Counted from the first letter of the stretch, positions 6,001 to 31,380 are shown. The stretch: 52,386 nt of DNA from Microthyrium microscopicum (GCA_010405405.1 MU004235.1:1750538-1802923), one strand, 5' to 3'. A program made the numbers and translations. The notes: generated by a model from the sequence alone, not told the origin.

Positions 6001-7150
6001 ATATTAATAAACTTCCTATATTAGAACTAGGCTTAATCTTATAGAACTTTATATAAAGATTAATAATATAATTAACTAAAGCTAAGAATATATTACTAGT
6101 ATTAAGATTAATAAAGTCTAAGTCTAATATAGATCTATTAGTCTTACTATACTTCTTCTAGCCCTTAATAGACGTCTTCTATAGCTTTTTAAGATTAGCT
6201 TTCTTCTTTTCTTTAAAGAACCTTACTAGATTATTTAGCTCCTTTTCTATAAGTTCTAATAGGTTATTAGAATCTATAGATTCTTTACTTATTAAACCTC
6301 TAACTCTACTACCTAATTTATTTTTATTATTCTCTTTATCTTCTTTACTCTCTTTATTCCTAAGCTCTTTTTTATTATTTTTATTAGACTCTTACTAGCT
6401 ATTTATATAGCTAGTATTAAATACTATATATTTAGCTTTAGTATAAGCTAATTTTACTATATTCTATTTATTTACTACTATTATTATTAAGTAGTTATAC
6501 TCTTACTACTAAAGAATCTTTTCTTTATCTTTAAAATCTCCTTATATAATAAACTTTACTAAAGATTTTACCTTATTCTTTATTAGTAAAGCTTTTAGCA
6601 TAGATTTAGCTTTTAACTTAAGTAGTACTATTTTCTTAGCTTTTAAAGCTAATTTAAACTAAGCCTTATATTCTTTATACTTAACTTTCTTTTATTAATT
6701 TTACTTATACTTATATAGTTAACTATTAGCTATAATACTATAAAAATAAGTAAGGAACTTCTATTAAACTTAAATAGAAATAGATAAGAAAAGTAAAGAA
6801 TATATACTAACTAAGCTTAGCTCTATATTTTAGTTAGTTAGTATTAAGTACTAGAGTATTATTACTCTAGTCTATATAAGTATTATACTTTTTTTTAGCT
6901 CTATTATTTAGGTTTTAAAGATTTTTAGTAAGTTCTTATTATATCTACTAAAGGATAGAGAACTAGGTATGCTTTATAGTAGTAATAAGCTTAAATAGTA
7001 TATTTCTTAGATAAAAAGATATAGATTTATAAGTAGATTATAATAAAGTAGGTTTATATATAAACTTTGTAATAAATAGTAAGTAATCTTAAATTTACTA
7101 TCTTAATCTTAAATTATAATATAGGTAGTTAGGGATAGTCCTTTAAAAAG
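1..7150. mobile_element. AT-rich RIP-degenerated repeat/transposon block (family not identifiable)
   Basis: No ORFs in the track. Very AT-rich with abundant TA/TAG/TAA, almost no CA/TG, and CG dinucleotides surviving, which is the CpA->TpA RIP signature. Sharp switch to normal composition at ~7150. A basic codon relic on the minus strand (~5186-5233, KRKATRKKAKANKERY) suggests former coding sequence. Confidence 0.8.
555..930 (+). repeat. Degenerate ~50-bp tandem repeats inside the left RIP block
   Basis: The unit core tagcttaacc/taacttaa recurs at 605, 655, 821, 871 and 921 (period 50), with shared flanks of the form aactagagaaattaaggaaatatacgcta. Confidence 0.75.
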
Positions 7151-8043
7151 GCCCATGCACGAGATAAAAATAATTCTGCACCCAACAAATCCGCGACCCA
7201 ATGGCGCGTCGCGCGTCTCTGTGCGCCAAAAAGGGGCTACGGTAAAAGTCGCGTCGTTGAACCTGTACGGTACCTGTAGACTGTACTATTTAACTTCGCT
7301 TCATCTTTCTGCTTAACACCGCTTCATCAGACAATCACAAGCGTGCCCGCTATAAGTTTTCACGAATTGAGTACGAAAGCGAAAACTCGACATGCAAGCC
7401 TCATCAATACGAATCTTACTGGACACGTATAGTTGAACAAGTACAGACGATAGGCCAACCATGAAAGTCTACAAACTAGTCGTAGATTACCGATAGAAGC
7501 CTCACAGAACATTTCTGGAGAGAGGTTGCATGCCCGCGATAAGCTATTCCATGAAACCTCTTGCAAATTCAGCCACCTGAGCTAGAGGGACCTAGCAGTA
7601 GTTGTAAGCAGGACGCAGTTTGAGCGCAGAAACGGCAGAAGCTCTACGAGCAAAAGGTTTACTGCCATATTCATCTATGTGCTCAACAGGTTTCAAAGTA
7701 AGATTGGGAACTTCAAAGCATTTTGCAGCATTTCAAAAAGAAGACAACTTTTGTATCTCGCGATAGTATGGAAAGTGCAATTACAGACTCACCACTCACC
7801 TCTCGCTAGCTGAAACAATCCGCCTATACGCCAGTGAAGAACATTTGACAGACAATGCATAAAGCCTATGCAGATAAACTCTGACCCAACTTTTGAGGTA
7901 CCTTGCGTACAACCGCCGTGATAATTTGCTAACAACTTTTGCGAACGAGTTTAATTCCCACAGACAAACCTCATGACACGAAAGCTAAACGATCTATCTG
8001 TCAAACCCTGCAGTATCACTCTACCATCTTCTTGATGCTATAG

Positions 8044-9669
8044 CTACAACTCCTCTACCTCGAGCAGTCGTTGCAACGTGTCCAATTTGTCGTCGCAAAG
8101 CTTGCGCAGCATCTCATTGCTTTCAGGGCTGATCAGAATATAGCTCACTTGCCCGACCTGTTTGATCTGGGCGTCCAAGCTAAACGCTTCTTCCAGCAGA
8201 TCTCGACACACCAGAGGCTTCCCTTTGCAGCTCAACCAACCGTTGCTTTTGTACTGATGGATCCAACTGTTCATACAATCAATGACGTTTTCGGATGTGC
8301 AATGAATTTCCAGTTTCATGCTCGAGCTTGAGCCTGGTCCCCCATTAATCTCGAGTGCTGTCTGTAACGCGAGATTCATTGCATAAATCTCAGCGCGCTG
8401 GGCTGTAGGCACTGGGCTGTCAGGCAAAGCTCCCGTGAAAACAGTGTATCGGCCAAGAACGCTTTTGCGAGCGCAAAGTGCAATACCTGTTGCCTTGCCG
8501 CTGGGCCAACCGCGATCAACACAGCCACTCTCGACATACAAAGCCACGTAGTGCTCTTGCCTATGGACGAATGCTTTATTCGCAACTGAGAGTTTGTACA
8601 GGCTGTGGTCTTTGGGCGCTATAGACCCGTTCGTATAATTCGAGATTGAAGGAGAACGATAGTGGGAGGAGGAAATGTCGCTACGTGTGTTGTTAAATTC
8701 ACTGCTGGACACGCTGCCGGACATGGTGACTCCGTTTTCTTTTTTCAACTCTTGAGATCCCCTGGAATCATTTGATCCTGCTTTCTTATTCTTTGACTCA
8801 CCGAGTGCTTCTGACTTTGCTATCGCTGTGGCACCTTCCAATCTCTTCAGGCCCCCCGCTGGAGCGAGCTTTTCATCCACCTCTTGAATTGATTTCACTG
8901 TTTTAAGTTCGATTGACTTCTCGATATGCTGTTCCATCTTCAGCAGAGGCTGTGTAGCTGATCTCATAGGAACAGTTTGCATCGCAGTTTTGAGACCTTC
9001 AAAACGAGCAGAGAGGTCGTCTATCTTTAGTGTGACCTCTGCTAAATTCAGCTCGTTGATTAGCTTGAGAGCATGTTCTGCTCTCTTGGGTCGTTCAGCT
9101 TTCATAAGATGATCCGCATTCTTGAGTTCCTCTGCTCTTTTGAATGATCCCTTGAGCCCGCTCTCCTGCCTGTCCAGCTGATCGAGCTTTTTCCTACAAT
9201 AGGAGTCAGCCAATGTATTTTCGTCCCTTGGAACCCATTGGTATTGAATACGACTATCAACTATCGCTCTCAATTGCGTATCTAGCCTCCAAGCCTCCTC
9301 AAACAAATCTCGATCCGTTTGACGGTTTCGGTCTGACACTGGTTTCATGCTTTCAAGGCTGCTTTTGGAATCTGAATGAATAATGAGATGGAATGTCCGA
9401 TTAGCGCCGCGCCCTCTGAGTAGTTGAAGGCCTTTTTTCTGGCCTAAGATTAGAGCAGTGATCTCGGCACGGTTGTCGGTGGGAGCTGGCCAAGAAGGAA
9501 GGACTGTATTCCAGACATCGTGATCGCCAGAGGTCTTTGATTTCTTATGAACACAAGTTGCGATGGCTTTGGCGTTTATTGTTCCCTGCTTTCGACAGCC
9601 GCCATCAACGTATAGGCGAACACAGTAGCGGGCCTGGCTCGCGGACGATGGTTGATGCTGCACAGGCAT
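8044..9669 (-). CDS. Tandem double-domain fungal RNase HI-like protein (N domain DEDD intact, C domain degenerate), 541 aa
   Basis: N domain has YVDGGC...PTDNRAEITA...IHSDS...WVPRDENTLADSYC. C domain has YVESGC...PTAQRAEI...IHCTS...WIHQYKSNGW...CRDL. These match Dikarya-type RNase HI motifs. No N-terminal hybrid-binding domain. Confidence 0.85.
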   Translation of the reverse strand: MPVQHQPSSASQARYCVRLYVDGGCRKQGTINAKAIATCVHKKSKTSGDHDVWNTVLPSWPAPTDNRAEITALILGQKKGLQLLRGRGANRTFHLIIHSDSKSSLESMKPVSDRNRQTDRDLFEEAWRLDTQLRAIVDSRIQYQWVPRDENTLADSYCRKKLDQLDRQESGLKGSFKRAEELKNADHLMKAERPKRAEHALKLINELNLAEVTLKIDDLSARFEGLKTAMQTVPMRSATQPLLKMEQHIEKSIELKTVKSIQEVDEKLAPAGGLKRLEGATAIAKSEALGESKNKKAGSNDSRGSQELKKENGVTMSGSVSSSEFNNTRSDISSSHYRSPSISNYTNGSIAPKDHSLYKLSVANKAFVHRQEHYVALYVESGCVDRGWPSGKATGIALCARKSVLGRYTVFTGALPDSPVPTAQRAEIYAMNLALQTALEINGGPGSSSSMKLEIHCTSENVIDCMNSWIHQYKSNGWLSCKGKPLVCRDLLEEAFSLDAQIKQVGQVSYILISPESNEMLRKLCDDKLDTLQRLLEVEEL

Positions 9670-10216
9670 AGTGGTCGAGAGTGTGATGGACAGATCCTGT
9701 CTGATTTGATTCGTTAGCTGTATTCTGTAGACATGTTTAGGAGGAGATTCTTCACTTGTGATGCTGAAGTTGACGAGGTTGGTGGTAATGTCGCAGTTTT
9801 CGTGAAAGCTAACGTATCAAGTTTGTAAAGTAAAGGCAAAGCGCCAACACGCTGGTGCGAGCAAGAGCAAAAAAGCTGTGGTGGGGTTGAGAGCAAAGAT
9901 GAGAGAAATACCAACAGATGAAGAGATGGGAAGAGCTGAATTGAGGTTGTTGGTCATTATCACCTCGTATACGCTGGCGAGGTGTTATGACACTGAACCT
10001 TCATGGCTAAAACCATCTCATATTCATGACATTTGCATGCTTGAAGCACGCGTTCAAATCTCTATCATAATCCTATTCATACAAATCATCTCGGGTATCC
10101 ATACACAAAACAGCAGTCCATCCTTCCCCTAAAAGGTAAGCGATAAACCAAATGCTATTATAACATATCACTTTCGTCATGCATGTGACGATATCTCATT
10201 TCCTTCTTCATGTTTG

Positions 10217-12890
10217 CTAGATCCCCATGAACGGATCAAACCACCCATCGCCCTCAAACTTCAGCCCATCGAAATCCTGCGCAACGCGATTCAACTCATC
10301 ATGCCAATCCGTATCTGCCACCCGACTCGTATGAATCGGGCCCAGCAGTGGCGTCGGCTGATTGGGGAACGGTGCGAATAGGAAACTCGCTTGGTTCGTG
10401 CGGTGTTCTGTTGCTCCTGAACCGGTCGTGTTTGTCGTCTGACCTGATCCTGATCCCGACCCTGCTCCTTTGCCTGGAGCTGCGGTCGCATTGGGTGGTG
10501 TTCCTGGCGCACTGGATCCGCTGCCACTGCGGCTGCCTCCGCGGTCTGCGGATGCTGATGGTGTGCTGAGGACTGGAGCCAAACGCGCGCGTTTTTGGAT
10601 TACTTGGGAGGGGTTTAGGAATGCGGTGCGTTTTGCGCCGCGGACGAGCTCTGCTTGTGGGGCTGCTGGGTCGTCGAAGCGTTCGCGTAAGCTTGTGGGC
10701 AGCTCGGCATGGGAGCGATATAGTGCATCTTCCACGTCTCCTGGTAAGATGACTGACCATTTGCCGACGAGGTCCTTAATAAGTTTGATGGAAGCGAGAG
10801 CCCACGTGTTGTGCGTTACGAGGTCATTGAATGCCTCGCAAGCAGCGCGTAGTGCGGTCGCGGATGATATGGCGGGTAGGTTGATAAGGTGAATGGTACA
10901 AGCGGTGAGTAGGCATTGGATCTGGAAGGTGTAGATTCCTGTCGTGCCGTAGAGGGAGAGATGTTTGGCGAAAAGTTCGGAGATGGCGGTGGCGGATTGG
11001 CGACAGAGTTCAGAGGGGACGATGTCGGATTCAGTGAATTTTGCGCGGAGAAAAGGGCGGAAGAGGAGAAGGACTGCTGCGTGGTAGTAGATGCTGGGGT
11101 TGTTAGTGATAAAATTCACGAAGTGTTGAGTGGAATCTTACTGGAGGCTTATGACGTGTGGTGGTACTTCTTCGTCGGATAATCTTACAATATCGGGTAA
11201 TCTTTCAAACCAGCTAGTGTATTTATGGTATTCGTCCAAAAGTAGTTTGCCTTTGATGATGGAGGAGGGGGCAAAGAACATGAGGAGAGTGGAGTTGACG
11301 ATTTTGGATAATGCAGCACATTGTCGAAAGGTTGAAGCTCGCGCCCCAGGTTTGACTTGCCTCGGACCCCATGGCTGTTCATCTAGGTCGTCATCGAGAG
11401 GAGGAAGCTCTATGGTGACAGCGTTTGTTAATAGTTGCGGTAATCGTCCAAGACTTAGGCTGGTAACTCTGATCGGATATTAACAATATACTGACAAAGT
11501 CTGAAGGTTAAGCTTACTGGTCTGATACGAAACATCCCCAGAAGGCATGTATCCGACCCGTTTCTTGGTTCTGAGCATCTGGACCCATTTGATCAAACGG
11601 AGTCTTTTCGTTTCTCAAATGAAGTCCTAGATCGAGAGCCATTCGCGCGCTTCGACCTACTAGTCCCCACATGGCTCCTAATCGCGCTCTATAACCTTCG
11701 ACATGACTAAGAATGAACACTCCAGCAGTAGTGGGTATACTTGACCGATCCGACTGATTTAGTAGTCGTATTCCTTCCTCGAAGAATCCAGCTCCAGCAG
11801 TCGTTGGATCAGACGGATCTCCACGAGCGTCGTCCCTATCCGATAAGAGGCAGCCAGCGGCGCAAATTGCATTTACAAGCACCCGAGAACAGAACTGGGT
11901 CTTTCCTGCCGCAAAGTCCTTGCGAAAGAGATCCTCTGGAAAGTTTTGGAAAAAGGAATGTTGCCAGGTGAAGTAGGTATCGAGAAGGTGCTCAATGAGC
12001 TCTTTGTCTTGCGTGACTCTGGTCCAGTGGTGATCGTCTGCAATTGGAGGCGTATGAGCATCCGGGGCTCTACTACCTCCCGGTATTGGCTGATTTGAAC
12101 TGAGATGAGGAGCGAGAGAATTACCTGCCATCGGTCGTGCATAGTACGGAGACTGTGTCTCTGCGCCCAGTCCAGGTTCTATATCCATAGCTTCTTGAGA
12201 ACGTGTTCCCTCTATGATGCTTTCGATCGGCTCTTGTCGTCGAAGTCGCATTATTATATCGTCGGTGTCGGGTGTGTTGCTTGTTGTAATAGCCTGGACC
12301 AACCGCTCGTAGGATTCCCTCGACGGGCCAAAAGACGCAGAGGGAGGATCTGTATTGAGAACACGCTGTAAGAAACCATCATACTTGGGGGCAGCATTAT
12401 TGTGAAACTGACTTGAGCCACTAGCTGGAGAGAAGGGACTATCTCCTTTTACTTGGGTAAGTGACCTACTGGCCTGGATCTGTTGAACCAGCGATTGTGG
12501 TTCTGCACCACCACGTATCCTCCGCAATATCTCAAAAGACTCGTCTTCTGTCGAATTTCTCAGATGCATTAGCAATTGCTCGAGGTTGTTCTTTTCTTCA
12601 GCCAATGTTTCAACGTTTTCGCGGAGATATGTAAGTCGACGCTGCTCTTCGTTCATGTCATATTGACAGTTTCCGTCTCTTGACTGGCATTGCGAACAGG
12701 TTGGTCGTTTGCCATCGCATTTGGTCTTACGCCTGCGACATGGTACGCATGCGACAATAGTGATCTTTCCGCGTTTTGAGTATGTAGGCTTTGAGGAACC
12801 ACCAGGTGGTTGTGAGGGTCCAGAGCCGGCAGGATTACCTTCCCTGCCCATGACTGGTTGAAATGACATGAATCCCAAGGGTTCTGTCAT
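10217..12890 (-). CDS. Zn(II)2Cys6 fungal transcription factor with Fungal_trans domain (NirA/Nit-4-like); exons 12890-11518, 11468-11142, 11093-10217
   Basis: ACVPCRRRKTKCDGKRPTCSQCQSRDGNC binuclear cluster; HLLDTYFTWQH, ARMALDLGLH, AFWGCFVSDQ/VTSLSLGRLP and HIYYHAAVLLLFRPFL motifs. Two GT-AG introns join the exons in frame. Confidence 0.9.
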
Positions 12891-15128
12891 AGTAACGAGG
12901 TATAATAGAAAGTGGTGAAGCTAGAGCTAGAGGCATGTAGAGATTATGGAGTGTAGTAATGGGAGTAGAGTTAGGTAGAAATTGCTACAATGATGGACAT
13001 TGGGTGGTTTTGGACAAGACACTAATGACATGGTGTCGAGTGTATATAGCGGGAGGAGAAATAATATCGAAAAGTGAAGAATGTCATGGGCAATTGCTTG
13101 CAATGAGAAAAGGTACATGGAGATGCTCAAATTCCCAGACGATCTTGCCTTGATGCGATGCTAGAGTATTGGAAGCATGTCGACGATGCTCATGGACTCG
13201 CACGATGACGTCGGCCGGACGCAATGACCACAGAAAAATGTTGAGCTCGGGAACAGGCAAAAGTCGCAAGACAGGCACAAGTGTCCATCTTTACTACGGT
13301 TGGACCTAACATTTGTCGGGGCCAGACTTGCCCGCATTAAAAGAATGAGGGTCCAGTCCAACCTAAAGTACTCGCTCTAAGGAATGTACACGTGAGCCAT
13401 GTGCGCATACAATCACTATGCGCCTCTGCTCCCTGGTGTATCATAAGACTGGTTCTTGAAGATTGGGCACAGAAGCTAAACAGAACACAGAAATACCATA
13501 ACCCAACAAAGTATGAGTGGAGCATGTGTGTTGCTGTAAGGTCCATTCGGGCTCTCAATAACGACTGGATTCAATTGGGAGGTTGGTACATGCGGAGGCC
13601 TGGTGCGGTGGAAAACAAAGGTGTGTAGAACGAAGTAGTGTAGCGCATTTTGCTCTATGTTGAAATAATTCGTTGAAGAACTCTTCGAGATCTAGGACGG
13701 TGCTCCGCTTTCTGGCTTACAACCCTCAAATATTAACAAGTAGAAGTTTGCAAAATTCTTGGTGTCGACTTGAAGAACCCCGGATTTTCACGGAGATAAT
13801 TCCGAAGTGACGTTGCAGAACGCAGACATCTTGTTGTTGATCCACAGCTTTGCTCTTGTTGGCCTAGTATGCCGTTGATTCTCGGACTCATCTCCTTCCT
13901 ACCACTAGTCTCAGACGTCGCAATGAGGTCAGAATCAATACCAGGGTGCTATTTTGGGAGTACATGCATTGTGCAAGTGGTAATGATAGGACTGTGTTGG
14001 ATTGATGAGGATGCACGTTACTACATCCAAGCCGATTCGGGCGACGAAACCTCAAGGTACAGCATCGACAGACTGCTGGAGCATCGTGGTTAGCAACGGA
14101 ATATATACCAGGATTACCACGAGGAGACAGGGTAAATATGTAAGACAAGGAAAGATGATCAATAAATGCACAAAGGGTCCAGTGTAGACTGTGAGAGTAG
14201 TCCATGTCTAAACGCGAAAATGACGTCGAGCAATGCTTCAGCTGCCAAGGGCCCAACATCATGATATCACTATGACTGATTCAGCGACCCTCAAGGTCGC
14301 TTTGTGATGGCCTTGTAGATAATCCGCAAAGTGAGCGATGCGACTAACGATGAGATTGGACGAGACATGAACGCTAGAGGGTATATAATTGTATGCGAGG
14401 CTCGACTTCAACGTCGCATGGAGGCTCGCCGAATACAAAATTAATCGCGCCTGACGCGCTCCGCTGTTTGCATGCTACAAAAATGCGCCTGTTCGCTGAT
14501 GATTGCAATGTGACCTCTCCAGTGCATTCAATGATAGACCATTTGTTCCCGTCGCCAACAACTCGGTACGCAAAAGCAAAAGACCACGCACAAACGCGCC
14601 TATAACCAGCCGGCGGCGATACATTTCCATCCAACAACCGCAGCGAGAGTAGGCTTCTGTTTGATGAGCGCACGTCTGAAATGCACACGACGTCGATCCA
14701 GCATCCAGTATCTTCCGCAACGACAGAAATGTCTCCAATCTTTGGCACATGAAACTCCACAGGTTATCGGAGCCCCAGCTTCCTTCAAGGAATTTTAGTC
14801 TACTAAGCGGCATCACAAATAATTGTGACTGGCAACACACACGCTGTTTGTAATTCGAGGCGGTGGTCGTGGCGTGCTCTGAGATCTTTTTGATGGAAAA
14901 AGAAGAAGAAAGTTCCAAAATTATTTTGACGCGAAGAGTTTTATGCCACCAGGTGCTGCTTAGTCAGATTCAGGGCTAGGGCGTGCTTCAACTTCGTGCC
15001 ATCATTAATTGGACATTGAGACTTCAACTTTTCCTTTTTATGGCATCTATATTGTTGCGGTGACTTTGGTTGCTATTCTCCTGTTCGTATCCTTTTATAT
15101 CGCTCCAGTCAATAAATACAGCCTCAGC

Positions 15129-16033
15129 ATGTCAAAGTCTCTCCAGCAGTACCATCCGCTCCAGCGGTTGGCTTCGCCTAGTCGAGGTATATCCGCTCTG
15201 GTTCATGCCACCAGCTTAGGTAGATATTATAGTCTCAAGTAGTAGAGCGAATCTTAACAATTCAAATAGTCAGCTTTGCACTTAGCTTTCGCTAGTAAGT
15301 GTCATGTTTTCCGGAGCTTCCGAGCCACTTTCATCTAACAGCAACCAAGTCTTTTGATAACGCCAAATCCAATGTAAGCCACGCTTTGGAGAATCTCCAG
15401 CTCGATCTAATCAGCCCAAGAAACGACTCGTACGGATGGCATCTTCAATATCTCACCATCATCGGCCTCAGGTGAGCAACAATCCTCACGCGCAAGGCGT
15501 CAACCTGACCCATCTCAAGTCTGTCAACCGTTACTTTTGCGTTTGGACTTCTCGCCGACATAACTCTCTCTCCTGCCCTCTTTTCCATAAAGAATGCGTT
15601 GTCCATAGCAAGTGCACCTTTGGAGATTCTAATCAGTCTACTATACTGGAGTTTGCGAGCCATTGATCCAAAACTCGTCGTTCCAGAGTTTGCGCCGCCT
15701 CTCGCTCCAATAGCAGATATAGGCTTCCATCTAGTCCCCTCAATTGTCATGCTCATCGACATCTTATTTCTCTCGCCTCCGTGGACTATTGCAACCGTAC
15801 CTGCCATTGGTCTAAGCAGCATTATTGCAATCGTCTACTGGTTTTGGGTCGAAGAGTGCGCGAAGCACAACGGCTTCTACCCCTATCCCTTATTTGACGA
15901 GGTCGGGCATAACGGTAGAGTAGCGCTCTTCATCATGAGCGCAGTGATCATGACTACAGGAACATGGTCACTCAAAAAGGTCTTCGGCCGTTTGAATGGC
16001 CGAGAAGTCCCCGGCCGTGTCAAGAAAGAGTAA
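15129..16033 (+). CDS. FAR-17a/AIG1-like integral membrane protein (several short 5' introns)
   Basis: MSKSLQQYHPLQRLASPSRG start, then NDSYGWHLQYLTIIGL, APLEILISLLYW, DIGFHLVP and HNGFYPYPLF motifs. Short GT..AG introns lie between ~15220 and ~15520; exact boundaries are not fully resolved. Confidence 0.8.
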
Positions 16034-16244
16034 GACATGAACAAATTTTCAAATACCATGTAACAACAGCACATCTACAAGCAGCAGCAATTCCTGTTTG
16101 GAATTCAATATACTTCATATCATCACATATAAAAGCCAGCAACGAATTTTGTTTTTGAAAGTCAATATACTTCATGTCATTATTTGGGGGTATTTCCAAG
16201 CGCTATTAAAATATGTACAAACTATCCCCCTTTTTTATCGCAAC

Positions 16245-18219
16245 CTAAACATGATGCGCATGCTTCTCATTAATCTCCTGCACAGTCTGTGGCTCCCTCT
16301 CAACCGCATTCTTCTTATTCCCTTGCAGTCGTCGAGCAACATTGCCGTGCAAGAAGTTCTTCATGTCTGGCACGAAGCAGGCGGCAATGATCAGACAGAC
16401 GCCAAAGGGGATGGTGGAGTAGAAGACGATGTGGAATGCTTCAATGTAGGCGCGGCGCACGGCTACGCTGACGGTGCTGATGATGGCTGGGGTGATGCCG
16501 GGGACGCTGGTGAAGCTGCCGGCGGTTATGCCGGCGAAGAGCGCGGGGAGTGAGGTGCTGGGGAGACCGGCGTTTGTGGCGGCGGGGACGACGTATTTGG
16601 GCAGATAGGTGGTGAGTTTGTTGGTCAGGATGGAGACGTAGAGAGATTGGGCGACTGCTCCACCAAGGGCGCGGACTGGAAGGTTTGGTTAGTGATGGGT
16701 TCATGAGAATGTGTGGGGTGAACTTACTGGATCCGAGGACACCGGTGGCGAGACCGATGTCTTGGGGCTCCCAGACGAGAGTTACGGCGGTGAAGGAGAT
16801 GAGATCGACCCAGCCGATGACGAAGGTTCCCATGACACCGAGGGCGATGAAGGTTGCGTGGTTGTTCTCGTTCAAGCAGGCGAGACCGCCGACGAAAGCG
16901 GTACCGCAGACGGAGAAGAAGATGACTTGCCACTTGACTTTGGGGATGTAGGAAAGTCCGATACCACCAAAGCATTGGCCGAGCAAGATGCCGCCACCGA
17001 CGACGGAAGACTGGAGTCCAACTTGTACTGTGTCAAGACCATATACTGCGACAAGGATGGATGGCCAGAGAATGGTGAGACTGTAGTAGACCATGGCACC
17101 GACGACGGCAACGACAATGATCGCGACGAATGAGACTTTTCGGAACATGCGTGGTGGCATAAGCGCTTGGCCCTTGAAGACGAATTGCTCATAGAGACCG
17201 AAACCAACAAGCACGAGACCGCCGATAACGAGCGTGCAGATGACTTGAGTGCTCTTCCATGGGTATTGAGAACCTCCCCAGGAGAAACCAATGAGGAAGA
17301 CGACAGTACCGCCAATGAAAAGAACAATTCCGATGAAATCGAGCTCCTTGAATTGTTGCCACTTGGTCTTGCCTTGCATATGGAGTTGGTCGAAGCGTGG
17401 TGGGTGGTAGAAAAATTGGTAGAGGATACCAGACAAGGTAGAGATGATGATACCAAGATAGTAGCTCCATCTCCAGCCAGCACCGGTGTGAAGAATGAAG
17501 GCGCGTGCAATGGATGGTCCAAAGACAGCAAATGGCATTGAAGAGAAGAAGATTGCGGATACGGCAATACCTCTGTGCTTGTTGGAGACGAGTTCACCAA
17601 GAATGAAACCGAAACTGAGTTGGCCAGCAGCAGCAATTCCGTTCAACATGTTGGCACCGATGAGAGTGTTGATAGTTTGCGCGGTGGCGCCGACAATCAT
17701 ACCAATCGTTCCGAGAACCTGGCAGCCGAGTACCATCCATTTGCGACCAAAAATATCGGATAGACGACCGACTAAGAGAAATCCAATGGCGGAGCCGAGA
17801 GTCCAGGTTGTGGCGACCCAGTTGAGATTCTTGGATGGACCAATATCTGCGTCAATGAGTGTTCTGATATGCTGGTTAGCGCATGGTTTCGTTGGATATA
17901 CTTTTTGCTTGGTTTCGACTGAGCGGGAGTGGGTGGCATAAACTTACAATGTGTTTGCTGGCAATACCCATCCAAGATAGGCGCAGATGGAGGCAAAGCA
18001 GATGGCGATGAATGTCATGATAAAGTCGAGACTGCGGTAATAGCCTTTAGGCATTGATTGGAGGTCTCCACCCACCGCCTTGTGATCGAGATAGTCAATA
18101 TGACCATCAGCATGAGTGGTTTCAATGGCTTCGAGGCGGGCCATGTCGCTGGTATGTTCGTGATGATTTGTAGTCATCTTGTCGTGATGAACGACATGTT
18201 CAGAGGTATGGTCTGACAT
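16245..18219 (-). CDS. MFS transporter, TRI12 (fungal trichothecene efflux pump-like) family; exons 18219-17948, 17863-16728, 16675-16245
   Basis: MPKGYYRSLDF, GRLSDIFGRKW, GWRWSYY, FYHPPRF, DIGLATGVLGSIRALGGAVA and AFHIVFYSTIPFG motifs; many transmembrane segments; two GT-AG introns restore the frame. Confidence 0.9.
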
Positions 18220-18390
18220 GTTGCCGATTCTACCACTGGTAGTTGTTCAGATGATGTGAAGTATAACAGATGAATACTAATGATAGCTTTCCAAGTATCC
18301 GGTCGAAGAATGAAAGTGGACTCCGGACAGACTGAAGTTTTGGATGGCTCTTCAAAGCTGTAGATCTTTAACGATGGGCAATTGAAGATC

Positions 18391-18397
18391 TTATATA
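18391..18397 (-). promoter_or_regulatory. Candidate TATA box of the MFS transporter gene
   Basis: TATATAA on the minus strand about 170 bp upstream of the ATG at 18219. Confidence 0.35.
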
Positions 18398-21353
18398 CAT
18401 CAATTCCCTATGTTTAAACGATCGACTCGCGTGCAAACCCAAGTTCGAAAAACGCCTTCCGAGCGGATACATTTGGCGCGTGCAACAATTAGCTGTAGCT
18501 AACGACGCCGGAAGATAGTCCCGACGCTCTCGCCCCAGCTCCCATCTCTCTGGGCTCTGGGCGAGTCTTCAATCTCATTGGCTTAAGATGCGCGGAAGCT
18601 TTCCACCTATGCTTCAAAGTAGCCTAGCAGCTTGTCTCAACACAACCAATCTGGGGAAATATGGTCCAGATCAGTCTCGACTTGTCTTCTTGCTGCTTTC
18701 ATCGAATGATGGGAGGCCGGAAATTCAACCCAGGTTACTGGTCTAGCGAGCGGCTCCACTGCATTAACTTCTCCAGTTCTGTGCATCATTTTCCCCAGAA
18801 CCCCAGATGTATCTTGAAGCAAGTTGAAGGCATGCGCTGCGCCCAACGAGTCGTTACTCTCCAATAATGGGAATAATGATCCAATTTGACTCTGCCGCTA
18901 GTCCTTTAGTGACAGCCCTAATATTGCTAGTGGAATCATTCTTACAGGTTTGATTCATGCGTGGTAGACGCCATTCAACTTTGGGCTTGGTCAGTCATGT
19001 ACACGAATAATAAGCTCATGGGCCACGTTTGCATTCCTCTTTGACCGTCTGTCACGCTGTCTTAATTTGTATCCATCGTAAAGGATGCTTGATCGACGTC
19101 CGCTGGGCCATAATTATTTAAAACTGTAAAGTGGTGGTGTTGACAGGTGCAAACCATATTTACCCCGGATATTGTTCAGCGTAACCTTTTCCGAGCTGGA
19201 TATCCAACATCCATCCTTCACCCCAACACCATTTTGAGAACTGTTTTGTACCTGAATGACTCTTTTTGGTTGCTTAAACATTGTAGGAAATGATTCAACC
19301 TCCTATTTCTAGCCTATCCCCAACCTTTGAGTTTTATTTTGCGAAAAACCTTTTTGACCAACTGTAGTTGGAGTTTGGGAAACCAATCCATCCATAAGCG
19401 AAATATTGCCCCGGAAAACACCATGCCTACTTTACTGAATACTCACATTGGTCTTTGAAACGGAAAGTGAACTGTTTCCAAACAGAATCAGTCAAAACAT
19501 AGCTGTTGTACTGGAACATATGTGCCATATAAGCTCAGTGACTGTCTCAACATTCAATCGCCCTCCAGCTTCTCCCCGTATACTTCAAAGTCACTGCAAT
19601 ATGCATGTATAATATGCTCAACTGACCGTTGTCTCCGACGATCATCAGTATAATCTTCCACTTCTAGAATCATGGGAAATATCCAACCTCAAAGAGCCTC
19701 GTCAGCCTTGGCCAGTCAGTCTCTCTCCAAGCGACCCGCCAGTTTGAATCAGACCCACATATGGCAGACGGTGTCCACTGTCACGATCTGGTACCGCCTA
19801 GCGTGACCAGACTACGCGGAACCGTCACCGCAGCCCAATTTGAGGATCTAGAACACTGTGGGGACCCCGCATAGGTTGGGGAAATCTACATTAGTCCGCG
19901 TGTTGCGCCCACGAACCCATTGGCTGGTGTTCTAGGCGAAGATCAATCTTCTGAGATCGCCTGAGATACATGTCACTCCTACATCTGAGATTTCTTAGTG
20001 GTATTGAGCACATTTTGGATTTGCTTCGTGATTAGACAAACTCTTGACCACATCAGAATGAGGCGTTGACTGGCGGCTTGAGCTTTTGGGCTGGGGTTGA
20101 AATCCATGCAACCAGGTGGTATGTCAAGTGATTTCATTTCTCTGGCCAGCTAGGGCTGATATCTTGCATCGATACCGAAGGATTCTGTCTATCCTATTCT
20201 AATCTTACCATTGAAAAAACTCTGAGTATGTACCTCTGATGCGCGTTCTGAGATACCCAGGCTGCAAAATTGCCAGTCTCTCGACAGACCCAAAGGACGT
20301 TTATTATTGGCCGTTTGTAGAGAACATCAAAATATGAGCCAATTAGCTTGGTTTGACAAAGCCCTACTGTTGAAGAGCTTTTTTTCCAACCTGGGTATCT
20401 CAGAACGCGCACCAGAGGTAAGTTATTACTGGATCATTCACGTTCAGTACAGCCAGATCTCAATGACTTGCCGGGGAAACAAGACTAAGATACCTGCTTT
20501 TGAACCCCCACGGTCACCACTCTTTGGAAACAGTTTTCAGAGTCTGATAAGAATTGCCGCAATAGGTGTGAAATTCCACTCATTGCTCTACGCCAGAGCT
20601 TGAAAGTCAAGAATTAGGATCTAACTGAAATGACTGTTGTCGTTCTAGTTCTACCATAACACCAATATGTTCCTTTTTGTAAGTAGTACATATATAGAGC
20701 TGTGGAATTTCTTTTCTTAGTGAAAAGCTCACTAGGTGACGAAAGGCTCGCCTTCTTCATGAGGTAACGGAGCCTGTTGGCCTCTTCCCGAATAAAGAAC
20801 AGAGACCACAGAGAACCCACCGATGAAGTTCAGCATCCAAAGAACTGAAACTTTTTATTCAATCGTTTGAAAGAAACATATTGCCATTTCCAATGGGAAT
20901 TCCCTACCAGATACCGTCCATTGAACCAATCAGCCTGATGTATGGCGCTATTAGCTAGATCTGATTGGTTCTAGAAAAAGCTTTGGTGGGGCTGACAGCC
21001 TTGTAGCTAGCCTGATGGATGAGCCACCTCTACCTTTGTTTATTATTCAAGCTTGATGTCTTGCTCACCTGCACCGCAGCTTCAAGACTTCCACCTATCA
21101 ACCCTCATTGTCAGCCGTACGGTCAATTGCCTCCTGCACTCTCGTAATCTATCATTGTTCCTTCTTCGTTCGCTTCACTAAGACCGAACGCTTCAATTGT
21201 CATGAACAGCTTGGCAATCAGCAATGCTTTCGATTTAAGTCAAGGGTACCTGTCAGGATATGCTAATAAAACTGGACGCCGCAACTGAACATAAACAGGT
21301 CGAACCAGAACTCCCATGTCCGAAACCAAATACTCGTAATAGAAGACCTGAAA

Positions 21354-22289
21354 ATGATCGCCAGGCACAAAGCTGCGTTGAGCAGTTTCGAGGACGCCTT
21401 CCCCGCCAGCGAAGCGTCCTTAATCCACGATTATGCCCTGATGGACGTTGACGCACCACGTGTAGACTTTTATGTCGATGGCGCTTACCGCCCTAAGGGT
21501 GCAATGCATGGCATACGACATGCTAAAGCTGTCGCTGCCTGCGTCCTCAAGAATACTAGTCACAGCAGAGGCCATAACGTCTGGATCAAAGTCTTGCCTG
21601 ATAAGCCACCTCCCACAAACACCCGCGCTGAGATCACTGCAGTCATTCTAGCGCAGGAGACAGCTCTTACGTATCGAAAAAACACTGTTACAAAGAAGCG
21701 ACAACTTCTCACCATTCACTCAGATTGTCGAACCACCGTTGAGCATCTTAATGGAGTTCAAATATCTAGGCAGAACAAGGATTTGCTTAACAAAGCCGTG
21801 GGCCTCGATAAAGAGCTAAGGCGATTCCCCGGATTTTCTGTTACATACACATGGATTCCACGAGGGGAAAACAAACTTGCAGATTCATACTGCACAGTCA
21901 AGCTAGATGAAGTGCAGGAGATCAACAAAAAAGATCTCAAGCAGAAAGCCAAGATTGAGACAAAGTTGCGCGAGTCTAAATCGGGAAGAAAAGTGGCGCT
22001 TGAGAAAAGGAATCTTAAGAAGACGAGGAAGCAGAAGAAGGAGAAAAAGCAGATTGAGGAGAAAGAGAGGCTAGAGAAAAAGCTAGATGCAGAGCGGAAG
22101 CTGAGCGCCGAAAAGACTAAGACAAAAAGGCTTGCGAGGAAAGCGAGGTACGAGCAGAAGAAATTGGACGCTAAAAAGAAGATGGAGACTTCGGAAAGGC
22201 CAATGAGCAAGCTTGAGATGGTTGTAAGGTTGAAGGACAAGCAAAAGGAGGATATGCTCACACACAAGAACATGCCAGCGAGATACTGA
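21354..22289 (+). CDS. Single-domain fungal RNase HI-like protein with Lys-rich coiled-coil tail (may start at 21202 via intron 21246-21298)
   Basis: YVDGAY...PTNTRAEITA...IHSDC...WIPRGENKLADSYC, so all four acidic residues are present. The C-terminal ~120 aa are K/E/R-rich. The upstream ATG at 21202 joins in frame if 21246-21298 (GT..AG) is spliced. Confidence 0.85.
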   Translation: MIARHKAALSSFEDAFPASEASLIHDYALMDVDAPRVDFYVDGAYRPKGAMHGIRHAKAVAACVLKNTSHSRGHNVWIKVLPDKPPPTNTRAEITAVILAQETALTYRKNTVTKKRQLLTIHSDCRTTVEHLNGVQISRQNKDLLNKAVGLDKELRRFPGFSVTYTWIPRGENKLADSYCTVKLDEVQEINKKDLKQKAKIETKLRESKSGRKVALEKRNLKKTRKQKKEKKQIEEKERLEKKLDAERKLSAEKTKTKRLARKARYEQKKLDAKKKMETSERPMSKLEMVVRLKDKQKEDMLTHKNMPARY

Positions 22290-23394
22290 ATAGCCGGGCG
22301 AGGCACGACGTGCGATACATAAAGATCTTATCAGGAAACGGTCTCTCTCGACCAAGGGGAGCAAGTCAAGAGACAGAACGGGGAAGCGATAGCATAATGA
22401 AAAGTTCAATGCAATGAGAATTCATCGTCCCATGTTCGTCTTTTGATATCAAAGGTAGACGAGATTCTGCGCAATCGTACTTTCGATACATGATCCAGGA
22501 CCCAGAAATACATATTCAACGATAGTCTGAGCTGATAATCGGGAAAATGATACCGCTCGTTATGTTTATTTTGATCGTCATGATTGGTGAAGGCACTACT
22601 AGTGTATGGCGATCCAAGGCTTATGAAAGGAAGACTGGCTGGATATTCTCTAGTTCTCTCATCTGAAAGTCTCCGCAGGTGCACAGCTAGATATTCAGAG
22701 TAATACTCGAGATCATGGAATGAGTAGCATGGTCTACAAGGAACATTAGAGTACTTGTATGAGGTCGGTTTTAATAAGCTGTCGCCCCTTTAAGCTACAG
22801 TTTGCGCCTTGAATAACAAGAGAACTGCCAATATCAGCAGTCAAGAAAGCATAACTGAGTTTTTTCGTACTTCTGATTAATCGTTACAGTGTAGCAGAGA
22901 TCAACATCAGCTAATGCTGGCATCGGGAAGGGCATTGTTCAGCTCCTGTGGTTGTATCGTTGAAGTGCCTCCGGTGATATCAAACTAAAAAACTGCACCT
23001 TCATGTCTGTTCTCGTTTTCTTGTCTCTAAAAAATCGTCTCATCACGCCAATAAGCCCCACCATCATATTTTGCTCTACTCGCTACTGGACCCATCACGG
23101 CAACACTTTTGCCTTTGCTTCATCAAACGCCACTTGCGTCTAGTCCTTCGTAACGTGCGATATCACTGATTGAACTACAGGATTGTGAACGCTCTAGATC
23201 ACCTTTAGACTGCAAGTCTCGAGGTAATATACTACTTCCACAGATATTTCGTTGAAAACAACTAATAAAGCGTCTCAGGCCTCAATTATCGCCAGTGCCA
23301 GCCACTATATCCCAAAGAACTCGTCATTACGTCAACATATCTCGAAACCCTTCGTGAGCTCGCTTATATAACTCTCTCCTGAGCGGATGCCAAG

Positions 23395-24837
23395 ATGTCC
23401 AATGAAGTAAACTTCTTTGCCGATGGCGGGTGCCGCCATCAAGGTACATCATCCGCCACAGGTGTCGCTGCTTGCGTGCTCAAGAATTCGCAAGCCTTCG
23501 GACGCAAAAAATCATGGACAGAAGCGCTGCCTGAATATCCGCCACCTACCAATACTCGTGCTGAAATTTCCGCTCTCATACTAGCCCAGGCAAAGGCCAT
23601 CGAACTACAGCGAAAGAGGTGGCGAAAAATCAAGCGCTCCAAGAAGCAAAACATACAAAGCACTAAAATCATCTTCGTTATTCACTCAGACTGTCAGCGT
23701 ACAGTTGAAGCTCTGAATGGCCAGATTTCGAACTGGATAGAGAGTGGCTGGAGTAAGAAAACGGGGGATCGCGTGGCAAATCAAGATCTATTCGAGAAAG
23801 CTTGGAAACTTGACCAAAAGCTAAAGCGCTGGAAAAGTAGGGTACGCGTTGTCTACAAGTGGATTCCACGCGAGCAGAACTGGATGGCCCACCACTGCTG
23901 TGCTGCAAAGCTAGTTGAACTGGAACAGGCTGAGACAAGTGATGAGCAGGAAGAGCAGGAGGAGCATGAGGAGGAATGGGAAAATGCAGAGTCTCAAGAT
24001 CAGTCTGAGGAGTCTGAGGAGTCTGAGGAGTCTAAGGACGATGAGACCGATGAGACCGATGAGACCGATGAGGACGATGAGGACGACGAGACTCATCACT
24101 CTCATGTTGCGGATTCCGCGATTCATACTGACATTTGTCGCGCCAACAACATGGATACCCGTATCATTGCAGAAAAGACCCGCCCCGTCTCAAGCATCAC
24201 ATCTAACAGTTCCCGGTTCATCGGACCGAACCTTACCAACAGTCAAATAGACATGTTGTGTAGTGCTGGCTGGGCACAATTCACGTCAATAATGGTGGAT
24301 AGCCGTTGCAGCAAGGGTGAACAAAGCCCTCGTGTTGGTGTTGCGGCTCATACTTTGGGCACGACTGGTGGACCACATACAGTCTACACCCAAGCTCTAT
24401 CTGATTTCCCGCCTCTTTGCACAAGACGCGCTCGACTGTTTGCAATCATCTCGGCCCAGCAATGGTATCTGGACAATGAAGCGGATGGACGGCTGCAGAT
24501 TCCCCGAGTGTTGGAGATCAATTCAACTTCCAATTGCGCCATTACGTATATGAACGGAAAGATCGAGGAATACAAGAACAACGACTGGCTAGATTCGAAG
24601 GGTGAGCCAGCTGAGTGTCAAGACCTTCTCCAGCAAGCCCTGTTCTTGGACGGAAGACTTAGGCAATTAGCTACAGTACACTACAAGTTGATTGCTCGAG
24701 AAAAGAACACATTCTTGCGCCAGTATTGCAAAGACAAGCTGAAGAAGCTACAAGAGGTGCTTGACTGCGAAGTCATAAATCTGCCTACATTATGTAGAAT
24801 AGCAGATAGCGCTGAGTATAGAGACTCAAGAGCTTAG
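23395..24837 (+). CDS. Tandem double-domain fungal RNase HI-like protein with acidic linker, 480 aa
   Basis: N domain has FADGGC...PTNTRAEISA...IHSDC...WIESGW...VANQDL...WIPREQNWMAHH. An E/D-rich linker follows. C domain (MVDSRC...RRARL...INSTS...YKNNDW...CQDLL) lacks catalytic residues. Confidence 0.85.
   Translation: MSNEVNFFADGGCRHQGTSSATGVAACVLKNSQAFGRKKSWTEALPEYPPPTNTRAEISALILAQAKAIELQRKRWRKIKRSKKQNIQSTKIIFVIHSDCQRTVEALNGQISNWIESGWSKKTGDRVANQDLFEKAWKLDQKLKRWKSRVRVVYKWIPREQNWMAHHCCAAKLVELEQAETSDEQEEQEEHEEEWENAESQDQSEESEESEESKDDETDETDETDEDDEDDETHHSHVADSAIHTDICRANNMDTRIIAEKTRPVSSITSNSSRFIGPNLTNSQIDMLCSAGWAQFTSIMVDSRCSKGEQSPRVGVAAHTLGTTGGPHTVYTQALSDFPPLCTRRARLFAIISAQQWYLDNEADGRLQIPRVLEINSTSNCAITYMNGKIEEYKNNDWLDSKGEPAECQDLLQQALFLDGRLRQLATVHYKLIAREKNTFLRQYCKDKLKKLQEVLDCEVINLPTLCRIADSAEYRDSRA
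23925..24092 (+). repeat. Low-complexity acidic coding repeats (GAGTCTGAG and GATGAGACC 9-mers)
   Basis: Direct 9-bp repeats encode SEESEESEES and DETDETDETDE. Confidence 0.8.
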
Positions 24838-25908
24838 AGCAAGCGAGGATGTACGCAGTGCTGGATGGTAACTTGACAATGAAAATGTACTGCTCACGAG
24901 AAGTGGTTCAAGGCTTCAAACTTTTGCAGAAGTGTCACCGTCTGCGTTGCCAAAGCTTTCTCTCCATTATATAGAACGGTCTTGAAAATGGAACCAACGC
25001 TTTGTACCAGTGGACTTCTTATATACTTTGAATAAACAACGGCTGTAATATCAACCCGTTTCGTAGTTCACGAGCTACACTGTGGAAAAACAATGAGGTA
25101 GTAAGTGGTGAAGTCTGACAAGTATAGTATGTCGTACACCAGTCTTTGCTATCTACTAACAGTATAACCGATGACAGCTCACCTGCATTGTCATGAATCA
25201 TCAAATGGGACATGAAAATCTCTCGACTCGCCTCAATGTAGATGTGCACCCGGTAGCAGCCGCTATGAGCACCACTAAGTGCTCTGCTACTCTCTGAAGA
25301 TGATGTTAGACTTCATATTGGCAACGCGGCGAGCTTGATCAATGCAGTGATCAAGCTCATTTTAGTAAAATAGAGGCCCAGGAGGTTATGGAAGTTGCTT
25401 AGAGTACCACAACAAACATTGGGTTGCGAGGTTTGTTAGTACAATGATGGGGCTGAAGAAGATACAATACAGAAGTTGACAAACAGCAAATAACAAATAC
25501 TGGATCTACTTAGCAGCACGCAGACACTTCAGATCCTCAAATCCGAGAGAGAAAGATCACGATAGGAGACAAATGAATCAAACAAAACCTTCATTATATA
25601 GGCGTTTCCAACACCATACATTATAATCTACAAAAAGCCCTCCCTCCCAATAACTACCAACCGCAACCAACGGAGGAGTATCCCATAGCCAATCTCGGAT
25701 AATCAGTCTATTTTGAGCCAGCGAGATAGCATGTGAAGTAGCGAGACGCCCAATTTCGTCTCCGCTGTAAACTTGTTGGCATGTAGCCAAGCCGTGTACG
25801 GATTAAGAATAACATTTTGCTTTTGCTCGCTCAAGAAACCGGTTATACGACGCGATAGTAGTACAAATTGTATAACGGTGGATGGGGAAACAATTGTTAT
25901 GGTGAGGA

Positions 25909-30843: not shown

Positions 30844-30899
30844 TGTGATGGTGGTTATGATAAGCCTGGAGAGAGGAAGAATTAAAGGAAGAGGGCGAG

Positions 30900-31380
30900 A
30901 CGCGTTTTGTTGTGGAGGGGCACAATGCCACAACTTTTGGATGGAAGGTGCAACAGCGAAATGCAGCAAGAGCAAAGTTGGGGGCACCTGCCTTTGAGAA
31001 GAGGTCGGCAAGCGCGACGCACAAGCCGCGTTGTAGGCACCAATGGCCACGCTAAACTCTTTTGGGTAGTGGTGCGGCAAATTGGGCCAACGACCCTGCT
31101 CGCTCCAACCAACCAACATGGAAAGAACGACACCTAAATATTCTGCAAACCTCCTCTCGCAAAGAGCATATTAAAACAACATATCGGTCAAAAATAAACA
31201 ACATTGCAAAGATAGGTGCCACTTTCAAATCAAACAAATTCAAATCAATCACACATGATCTCACGAAATCAGCATTCCAAACTCCATGCGCTCCTCCTTT
31301 CCACCCAGCGCATTGCTTTCAGTTTCTTCTATCCTTCTGATCACACACCCTGTTCCTGCGTCCTCGCGTGCCTCGCGTCT
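30900..31380. promoter_or_regulatory. MCB-like (ACGCGT/CGCG) sites upstream of YTA7
   Basis: ACGCGT at 30900-30905, plus CGCG cores near 31012-31030 and 31364-31378. Confidence 0.35.

Follow-up and report, generated by a model that had tools for sequence, protein, structure and literature searches.

A three-gene cluster of stand-alone RNase H-like proteins in Microthyrium microscopicum, two of them fusing an apparently intact to a degenerate domain

The subject of this analysis is a set of three RNase H-like genes, here called A, B and C, in a 52,386-nucleotide (nt) stretch of the Microthyrium microscopicum genome (GCA_010405405.1 MU004235.1:1750538-1802923). We refer to the whole stretch as the window and count positions from its first letter. 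All three are annotated as single-exon genes, since each is letter-for-letter identical to a public gene model, and all three frames run uninterrupted from ATG to stop.

8044-9669, minus strand: gene A, single exon, 541 amino acids (aa), identical to public model P0001 (100%/100%)
21354-22289, plus strand: gene B, single exon, 311 aa, identical to public model P0003
23395-24837, plus strand: gene C, single exon, 480 aa, identical to public model P0002

Together the three proteins carry five mutually similar RNase H domains. Searching the whole window with each domain by tblastn returned exactly five copies, which match one another at E-values of 1e-11 to 1e-34, and no sixth domain remnant, including downstream of B. 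Pairwise identity among the five is 24-43%, yet 17 columns are invariant across all of them and the non-catalytic motifs of the family are kept. The Pfam family RNase_H (PF00075) exceeds its gathering score in A (E = 2.4e-13, 50.9 bits, in two stretches) and in C (E = 7.9e-10, 39.5 bits); in B only RVT_3 (PF13456) passes (E = 1.9e-4, 21.8 bits against a cut-off of 21.6), and B scores 254 bits against a profile of the five domains. Neither the reverse-transcriptase (RT) families of Pfam nor the hybrid-binding domain (HBD; PF01693) gave any match to the three proteins at E <= 1. These results bear out a first-pass annotation of the window, which had described three genes at these positions encoding five similar RNase HI folds with no attached RT and no HBD; the PF00075 search that it proposed recovers A and C, whereas B is matched by RVT_3 only.

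Gene A consists of an N-type RNase H domain (A_N), a linker of about 170-200 aa and a C-type, degenerate RNase H domain (A_C). Gene C has an N-type domain (C_N), an acidic linker and a C-type degenerate domain (C_C), and gene B has one N-type domain followed by a strongly basic tail. Five active-site columns were placed by profile alignment, the fourth being an arginine characteristic of the family, at the site of the histidine loop of E. coli RNase HI. We also delimited a protrusion segment, the stretch from the third catalytic residue to a conserved DL motif, which in the family profile aligns with the basic protrusion, or substrate 'handle', of E. coli RNase HI. The parts of the three genes are as follows.

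9115-9669, minus strand: A_N domain, residues 1-185; active-site columns D-E-D-R-D, intact (acidic set DEDD); shortened protrusion segment
8605-9114, minus strand: A linker, residues 186-355; a K/E-rich part predicted to be helical, then an S-rich part for which no structure is predicted
8047-8604, minus strand: A_C domain, residues 356-541; E-E-T-P-R (EETR at the acidic positions); full-length protrusion; best Pfam stretch 375-495
21462-21923, plus strand: B domain, approximately residues 37-190; D-E-D-R-D, intact (DEDD); protrusion of 18 residues
21924-22286, plus strand: B tail, residues 191-311; 46 K+R against 20 D+E, net charge +26, isoelectric point (pI) 10.3
23395-23949, plus strand: C_N domain, residues 1-185; D-E-D-R-H (DEDH); full-length protrusion segment
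23950-24234, plus strand: C linker, E/D-rich
24235-24834, plus strand: C_C domain, residues 281-480; D-R-T-R-R (DRTR at the acidic positions); full-length acidic protrusion

None of the N-type domains has thus lost more than one of its four acidic residues, and the C-type domains are degenerate, as the first-pass annotation had claimed. The fourth-column arginine is present in A_N, B, C_N and C_C and is replaced by proline in A_C. Because three of their four acidic residues are lost, A_C and C_C are probably unable to cleave.

A feature beyond those of the earlier annotation is a shortening of the protrusion. The segment spans 31 aligned residues in 135 of the 159 rows of the family alignment. 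C_N, A_C and C_C have it in full, but only 20 residues of it are left in A_N and 18 in B; such short forms are rare, with only two other full-length rows having 22 or fewer. Gene A thus holds the two features apart: A_N has the catalytic residues but little of the handle, and A_C has the handle but a degenerate active site. The protrusion of C_C is acidic (6 D+E, 3 K+R), and C_N carries a short, very basic extra insert past the first helix.

The regions between and behind the domains are strongly charged. Residues 171-370 of A have a net charge of +8 and contain 34 S+T; residues 173-295 of C contain 41 D+E and 6 K+R (net charge -35, pI 4.05); and the whole B protein has a net charge of +32. 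From their composition, the linkers of A and C and the tail of B look like disordered or single-helix spacers, possibly serving as nuclear-localisation or nucleic-acid-binding tails. A single-sequence model of full-length A places helices at residues 154-267, but its confidence is low (predicted local distance difference test, pLDDT, 38.3) and it is uninformative, the linker included.

Among the five domains, A_C was the one modelled separately. Its AlphaFold2 model, made with a 40-row alignment, is confident (pLDDT 90.1), and Foldseek matches it best to E. coli RNase HI, with a probability of 1.00, and to human RNase H1 (E of about 1e-9, template-modelling score normalised to the target up to 0.80). 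The degenerate domain is thus predicted to retain the RNase H fold.

The domains belong to a large family. A search of 1.84 billion representative proteins with the five-domain profile gave 3412 matches at E <= 1e-3, 313 at E <= 1e-10 and 30 at E <= 1e-30; the details that follow are drawn from the best 150 of the 3412. Most of these 150 are single-domain proteins of 150-200 aa, a typical member having about 165-180 aa, and they are named 'ribonuclease H', 'ribonuclease H-like protein' or hypothetical in the databases. The matches listed include Dothideomycetes (Microthyrium, Zymoseptoria), Eurotiomycetes (Myotisia, Aspergillus), Sordariomycetes (Hypoxylon, Xylariaceae) and lichen-forming Lecanoromycetes (Protoblastenia, Heterodermia); examples are KAF2666074.1 of M. 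microscopicum, XP_003852604.1 of Zymoseptoria tritici and KAL4789570.1 of Aspergillus venezuelensis. Neighbours in the ESM Atlas are likewise Ascomycota 'ribonuclease H' clusters. Two matches, P0010 and P0107, are filed under Quercus suber (POE86493.1, POE73057.1) and may be fungal contaminants in a plant assembly. The active-site columns read D-E-D-R-D in 56 of 96 fully aligned domain rows, and 84 of the 96 have arginine at the fourth column. Judged by profile similarity, the D-E-D-R-D consensus and the protrusion of about 31 residues, A, B and C are members of this family. They are at the same time variants of it, as far as their predicted domain content goes: typical members have no accessory domain, a feature broken in A and C by the second domain and in B by the tail.

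Among 151 proteins compared, 12 have more than one matched stretch. In four of these (P0044, P0067, P0103 and P0144), none of them longer than 251 aa, the match is split or partial, and in two (P0093 and P0146) only part of the domain is repeated. Two more, P0020 (Spathaspora) and P0138, repeat the whole canonical RNase H1 unit in tandem, with columns 4-5 unaligned, as expected for the type with a histidine loop. P0004, from a lichen fungus, has two domains, the second with an unaligned first column and an intact E-D-R-D. No protein besides A and C in the best 150 of the 3412 matches joins an intact N-domain to a degenerate C-domain. The longest of the 150 best matches has 911 aa, and RT was found neither in a Pfam scan of eight fused or long members nor in 14 sequences inspected. 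P0075 (626 aa) has a long N-terminal region without a Pfam match at E <= 0.01 followed by an RNase H domain, and P0068 (453 aa) has the family domain and a C-terminal extension of no recognised type; the domain has therefore been recruited into other architectures elsewhere.

The domain family is thus widespread and automatically annotated in ascomycetes, and we found no functional study of it in the literature. A literature search with subscription journals outside its scope found no publication on this fungal family or on stand-alone proteins with live and dead RNase H domains in tandem. The first-pass annotation knew of no described system with this architecture, which agrees with the literature found; the domain type, however, belongs to a large, already annotated family. 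As for the double-domain proteins themselves, their gene models are public, and the fusion of intact and degenerate domains recurs nowhere else in the 150 best matches. Taken together, a fusion of intact and degenerate domains with complementary loss of features, in a three-gene cluster, appears to be a rare variant of the ascomycete RNase H-like family.

Other members of the family lie elsewhere in the same genome, which by database matches alone has at least five family genes with at least eight domains. P0009 (171 aa, D-E-D-R-D), on another contig, is the nearest relative of the N-type domains. P0141 (911 aa), also on another contig, has two degenerate domains with the signatures S-E-A-?-? 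and N-K-S-N-D, separated and trailed by long E/K/Q-rich repeats and acidic S/T/E/D stretches; it has no Pfam match at E <= 0.01, yet its UniRef name is 'RNase H type-1 domain-containing'. A layout of two domains and charged linkers is thus found in three genes of this genome (A, C and P0141). P0141 was considered as an orthologue of A or C and ruled out, its domain identity being only 27%. Word-based searches for close orthologues of A (whole protein) and of C_C returned the query alone, a weak negative because the method needs shared 5-mers. As a control, the neighbouring TRI12-type transporter finds 75% identity outside its own genome in a metagenome fragment and then at most 69% (Pleosporales and others). 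The lack of close orthologues is therefore partly an effect of sampling, the nearest sequenced relatives being distant.

For the phylogeny of the five domains, likewise proposed in the first-pass annotation, we used IQ-TREE (LG+C20 with posterior mean site frequencies, 160 columns) on 54 of 122 domain rows, picked by hand: the five window domains, P0009, the second domain of P0141, the rows closest to them in a FastTree tree and a range of DEDD members. The N-type domains A_N, B and C_N form a clade with support of 100/98, joined by P0009 at 97/81, and this clade holds sequences of this genome alone, which upholds the earlier description of the set as lineage-specific. The C-type domains A_C and C_C, which are 33-37% identical, pair at 99/87, and P0140 (191 aa) joins them at 97/85. 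These results need to be interpreted with the rest of the tree in mind, as its backbone is star-like, with 29 of 51 inner branches open, and the bootstrap had not fully settled; given this backbone, a 'degenerate-site' clade that held the C-type domains in a FastTree tree is not relied on. End branches are 0.52-0.79 for the N-type domains, 1.55 for C_C (the longest of the five window domains) and 2.37 for P0141, against a family median of 0.74. The description of the module as fast-diverging therefore fits C_C but not the N-type domains. At the protein identity that separates the paralogues (24-43%), their synonymous sites are saturated.

Since N-type pairs with N-type and C-type with C-type, the two-domain layout is older than the duplication that separated A from C. 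B is probably a local N-type copy, because in the tree it falls among the N-type domains and in the window it shares the strand of C, 1.1 kb upstream of it. The likely history is one in which duplication of a two-domain ancestor, N-type plus C-type, produced A and C, and B arose from an N-type copy beside C.

Evidence on transcription comes from a public sequencing run (X1), whose status as RNA was at the outset a guess and which shares 23% of sampled words with positions 21000-25000. All 11 of its 11 contigs on 7500-25500 are at least 99% identical to the window, and seven of its joints, in the transcription-factor and FAR-17a genes described below, skip 47-63 nt with GT..AG or CT..AC ends. 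Because of these seven canonical intron joints and the 11 near-identical contigs, we conclude that X1 contains spliced RNA of this organism. Contigs of low depth (approximately 1-8) cover parts of A and C, for example 7954-8412 in A (depth 3.4) and 24340-24761 in C (depth 7.9), with a depth of 88-288 on neighbour genes. This is a weak hint of low-level transcription of A and C. No contig covers gene B or 18919-23125, a blank that carries no weight on expression.

The three genes lie in a filamentous-ascomycete gene island of about 38 kb, from approximately 7.3 kb to 45.5 kb of the window, with a GC content of about 45-50%. Its surroundings and the other features of the region are these.

1-7250: AT-rich block 1, GC about 0.22, resembling the product of repeat-induced point mutation (RIP), from base-composition and dinucleotide indices
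45500-52386: AT-rich block 2, GC about 0.22, RIP-like, from the same indices
10058-14884, minus strand: Zn2Cys6 / Fungal_trans transcription-factor gene, from Pfam and an RNA contig
15216-18819: FAR-17a/AIG1-like gene and, on the opposite strand, a TRI12-type transporter of the major facilitator superfamily (MFS), from Pfam and a contig
20231-20420: inverted repeat with 39-nt arms, 92% complementary and 112 nt apart, from a repeat scan
25909-31170, minus strand: large AAA-ATPase gene, with AAA and AAA_lid_3 in the open reading frame (ORF) at 27673-29829

Both AT-rich blocks have a strong RIP signature (TpA/ApT 1.67-1.68; (CpA+TpG)/(ApC+GpT) 0.11-0.24), the left one, which ends near 7250, having a GC content of 0.22 and indices of 1.67 and 0.11; their borders with the island are sharp, within about 250-500 bp. 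Across A, B and C the RIP indices are normal, unlike those of the flanks. The first-pass annotation had placed the three genes beside transposon graveyards. If the RIP-like blocks are transposon relics, this would be accurate for A, whose 3' end is about 800 bp from the left block, but not for B and C, which lie 14-16 kb inside the ordinary gene island. Scans of the region found no DNA-level repeats linking A, B and C and no tRNA genes, and the 14 larger ORFs of the island had no match to RT, integrase or endonuclease families of Pfam. By Pfam matches to the island ORFs, the neighbours are of housekeeping or transporter type, with no known defence genes.

A 4690-nt RNA contig on the transcription-factor gene removes introns at 11094-11141, 11469-11517 and 12350-12412 (CT..AC on the plus strand). 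The first ATG is at 12890, and the contig continues upstream of it for about 2 kb, which means either a long 5' leader or two merged transcripts. Four introns of only 47-55 nt interrupt the FAR-17a/AIG1-like gene, with GT..AG joints at 15216-15518, and one contig of depth 288 bridges 15518-18819, over both this gene and the TRI12-type transporter, whose ORF runs into an intron or a frame change past about residue 338. The inverted repeat, which resembles a miniature inverted-repeat transposable element or a hairpin, sits in an ORF-poor gap of 2.4 kb upstream of gene B. The AAA-ATPase gene is directly downstream of C and convergent with it, and is flanked by long low-complexity ORFs without a Pfam match.

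On the fold, family membership, residue patterns, paralogy and architecture established above, we base an explanation to which we give slightly more belief than doubt: the three genes would be a lineage-specific, local expansion of a stand-alone type-1 RNase H family, in which a live domain is tethered to a folded but dead domain acting as a substrate-binding or regulatory module. Judged by their residues only, A_N, B and C_N would be Mg/Mn-dependent nucleases acting on RNA:DNA hybrids. The change from D to H at the last catalytic position of C_N may be tolerated: D134H and D134N mutants of E. coli RNase HI reportedly keep partial activity, and structure titles among our matches record that both have been crystallised. 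A_C and C_C would be non-cleaving and kept as folded modules, standing as a tethered substrate-binding or regulatory part in place of the missing HBD. Gene A may show a division of labour, the dead A_C supplying the handle that the live A_N has lost. The isolated RNase H domain of HIV is said to need a handle for activity; according to a structure title among the matches, this domain has been crystallised with an engineered E. coli loop (3HYF). In gene B, the lysine-rich tail could take the place of a second domain and confer either non-specific affinity for nucleic acids or nuclear targeting. In favour of this explanation, all three frames have stayed open, over 541, 311 and 480 codons, and the RIP indices across the genes are normal; the tethers of retroviruses and Tat retrotransposons, described below, offer a precedent for its logic.

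Several observations weigh against it. A_N and B, lacking most of the protrusion, might be weak or inactive on their own, C_N has H for the last catalytic D, and the acidic protrusion of C_C, with twice as many D+E as K+R, would seem to fit hybrid binding poorly. Active sites other than D-E-D-R-D occur in 40 of the 96 fully aligned rows of the family, many of them in single-domain proteins; loss of catalysis is thus common without a fused partner, which weakens the idea that the dead domain serves the live one, although the list of matches is perhaps enriched for degenerate forms because two of the five profile sequences are degenerate. In an approximately unbiased (AU) test, a single clade of the five window domains, P0009 and P0140, a group named after the tree had been seen, was not rejected (p = 0.40), and therefore neither internal duplication nor fusion is rejected as the origin of the C-type domain. 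The X1 signal on A and C, which comes from one run and at low depth, may be DNA carry-over. We also found no biochemical or genetic data on any family member in the literature.

The degenerate sites could also be read as decay, the genes or at least their C-terminal domains being relics of local duplication under relaxed constraint. The loss of catalytic residues in A_C and C_C, the long end branch of C_C (about twice the family median), the failure of word-based searches to find close orthologues, the difference in contig depth between A and C and their neighbours and the position of A next to a RIP block would all fit such a history. Relics of this kind would not be expected to combine frames open across 311-541 codons, a confident RNase H model for A_C, 17 invariant columns with the non-catalytic motifs shared by all five domains, and RIP indices in the normal range. 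Moreover, the 33-37% identity of A_C and C_C and their pairing at 99/87 indicate that the C-type domains lost catalysis and then persisted while they diverged over a long period, and we consider decay unlikely. A derivation from retroelements, with the genes as domesticated or fossil RNase H domains of elements with long terminal repeats (LTRs) or resembling long interspersed nuclear elements, beside a transposon graveyard, we regard as highly improbable. It could draw on the marginal matches to RVT_3 ('reverse transcriptase-like'), on the proximity of A to the RIP-like block and on the motif P-R-E-x-N-x-x-A-D, whose arginine recalls the archaeal and retroelement aRNH subtype (alignment with 2EHG; accessible portion of PMC4408406). 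The genes themselves are not RIP-mutated and share no DNA-level repeat, however, and no RT, integrase or endonuclease was matched in them or in the island ORFs. No family match exceeds 911 aa among the 150 best and the inspected fused ones are without RT, and the family profile scores cellular RNase HI/H1 14 orders of magnitude better than the archaeal ST0753, and better than retroviral RNase H.

The first-pass annotation had raised the prospect of a conflict system, in which a set of nucleases and pseudo-nucleases serves anti-retroelement or antiviral defence or forms a toxin/inhibitor pair; it had named R-loop control as another candidate role. In one form of such a system, the basic B would partner C with its acidic linker; in another, the dead domains would be decoys for the live ones or would inhibit them. 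A lineage-specific expansion, frequent turnover of catalytic residues across the family, the presence in the genome of heavily RIP-mutated repeat blocks and of P0141, with its two degenerate domains and long charged linkers, and the adjacency on one strand of B (net charge +32) and C (linker net charge -35) would suit it. Complementary charge is a coincidence-prone argument, however, the N-type branch lengths are ordinary for the family, the neighbours are not known defence genes, and no result obtained here ties the genes to retroelements, viruses or toxicity; we think such a system quite unlikely. More speculative still, and very doubtful in our estimate, is a reading in which a large family of HBD-less ascomycete enzymes and pseudo-enzymes, losing catalysis again and again, gave rise in this lineage to 'reader-cutter' proteins for genome defence, the dead domain sensing hybrids (complementary DNA intermediates of retroelements, R-loops or viral replication intermediates) and delivering or restraining the live one. 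Such proteins would be the host's own counterpart to the retroviral pair of tether and RNase H.

The biology of eukaryotic RNase H1 rests on a single housekeeping enzyme with a hybrid-binding domain. The finding points to a separate and seemingly uncharacterised ascomycete family with hundreds of small RNase H paralogues, many of which have naturally lost catalytic residues, and, in the window, to a rare fusion of live and dead domains in which one domain has lost catalysis and the other the substrate handle. Should the dead domains bind hybrids, they would be hybrid binders in which catalysis was lost naturally, and the fusions would be a host example of the active-plus-degenerate arrangement known to date from retroviruses and Tat retrotransposons. 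Otherwise, the genes would simply be a diverged family in a poorly sampled fungal lineage.

Compared with known enzymes, the family is closest to cellular RNase H of type 1. E. coli RNase HI (1RNH/2RN2) and the catalytic domain of human RNase H1 (2QK9) are the best matches to a 40-sequence family profile (E of about 2e-18), and the likeness extends to the D-E-D-D core, the aligned region of the basic protrusion and, for A_C, the best structural match. The three proteins differ from eukaryotic RNase H1 in having no N-terminal PF01693 hybrid-binding domain at E <= 1, and from E. coli RNase HI in having, in place of the histidine-bearing loop, a shorter P-R-E-x-N motif that carries arginine, seen as a four-residue gap in the family alignment. 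They further depart from cellular type-1 RNase H in that two of the five window domains lack the catalytic residues.

Likeness to the other RNase H types is more partial. Archaeal-type RNase HI is not known to have the protrusion segment, which the fungal family has in an E. coli-like form. The archaeal ST0753 of Sulfolobus tokodaii (2EHG/3ALY) matches the family profile at an E of 1e-4, against 2e-18 for the E. coli and human enzymes, and shares with the fungal family the C-terminal motif W-(I/V)-P-R-E-x-N-x-x-A-D with its arginine; an arginine for the active-site histidine is described in the accessible portion of PMC4408406 as a mark of the archaeal-type, or aRNH, subtype. Likeness to Pfam RVT_3 is marginal, with scores at or below the cut-off, and retroviral RNase H domains score far below E. 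coli and human RNase HI/H1 with the family profile.

The closest analogies to the architecture are found in retroelements. Retroviruses and Tat LTR retrotransposons retain a degenerate RNase H 'tether' beside an active one, and the tether is proposed to position the substrate or modulate cleavage (PMC4408406, accessible portion), and A and C resemble the retroviral tether-RNase H pair and the dual gRNH-aRNH of plant Tat elements in joining a dead and a live RNase H fold in one polypeptide. In the retroviral and Tat systems, as the same source describes them, the pair lies inside Pol beside RT, and the dead domain immediately precedes the live one. A and C, in contrast, have no RT or Pol, place the live domain first, have linkers of 95-200 aa and belong to a cellular-type family, and the likeness is one of analogy only. 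Binding without cleavage has a parallel in RNase H1 itself, a catalytically inactive form of which still binds RNA:DNA hybrids specifically (PMC8266564, accessible portion); that protein is an engineered point mutant that keeps its HBD, whereas A_C and C_C are natural forms lacking three of the four acidic residues and are only proposed to bind. The nearest relatives remain the single-domain RNase H-like proteins of ascomycetes, which belong to the same domain family (profile E of 1e-16 to 1e-45), with D-E-D-R-D, a 31-residue protrusion and no HBD or RT match; to this plan, A and C add the fusion of an intact and a dead domain through charged linkers, and B a basic tail of 121 aa.

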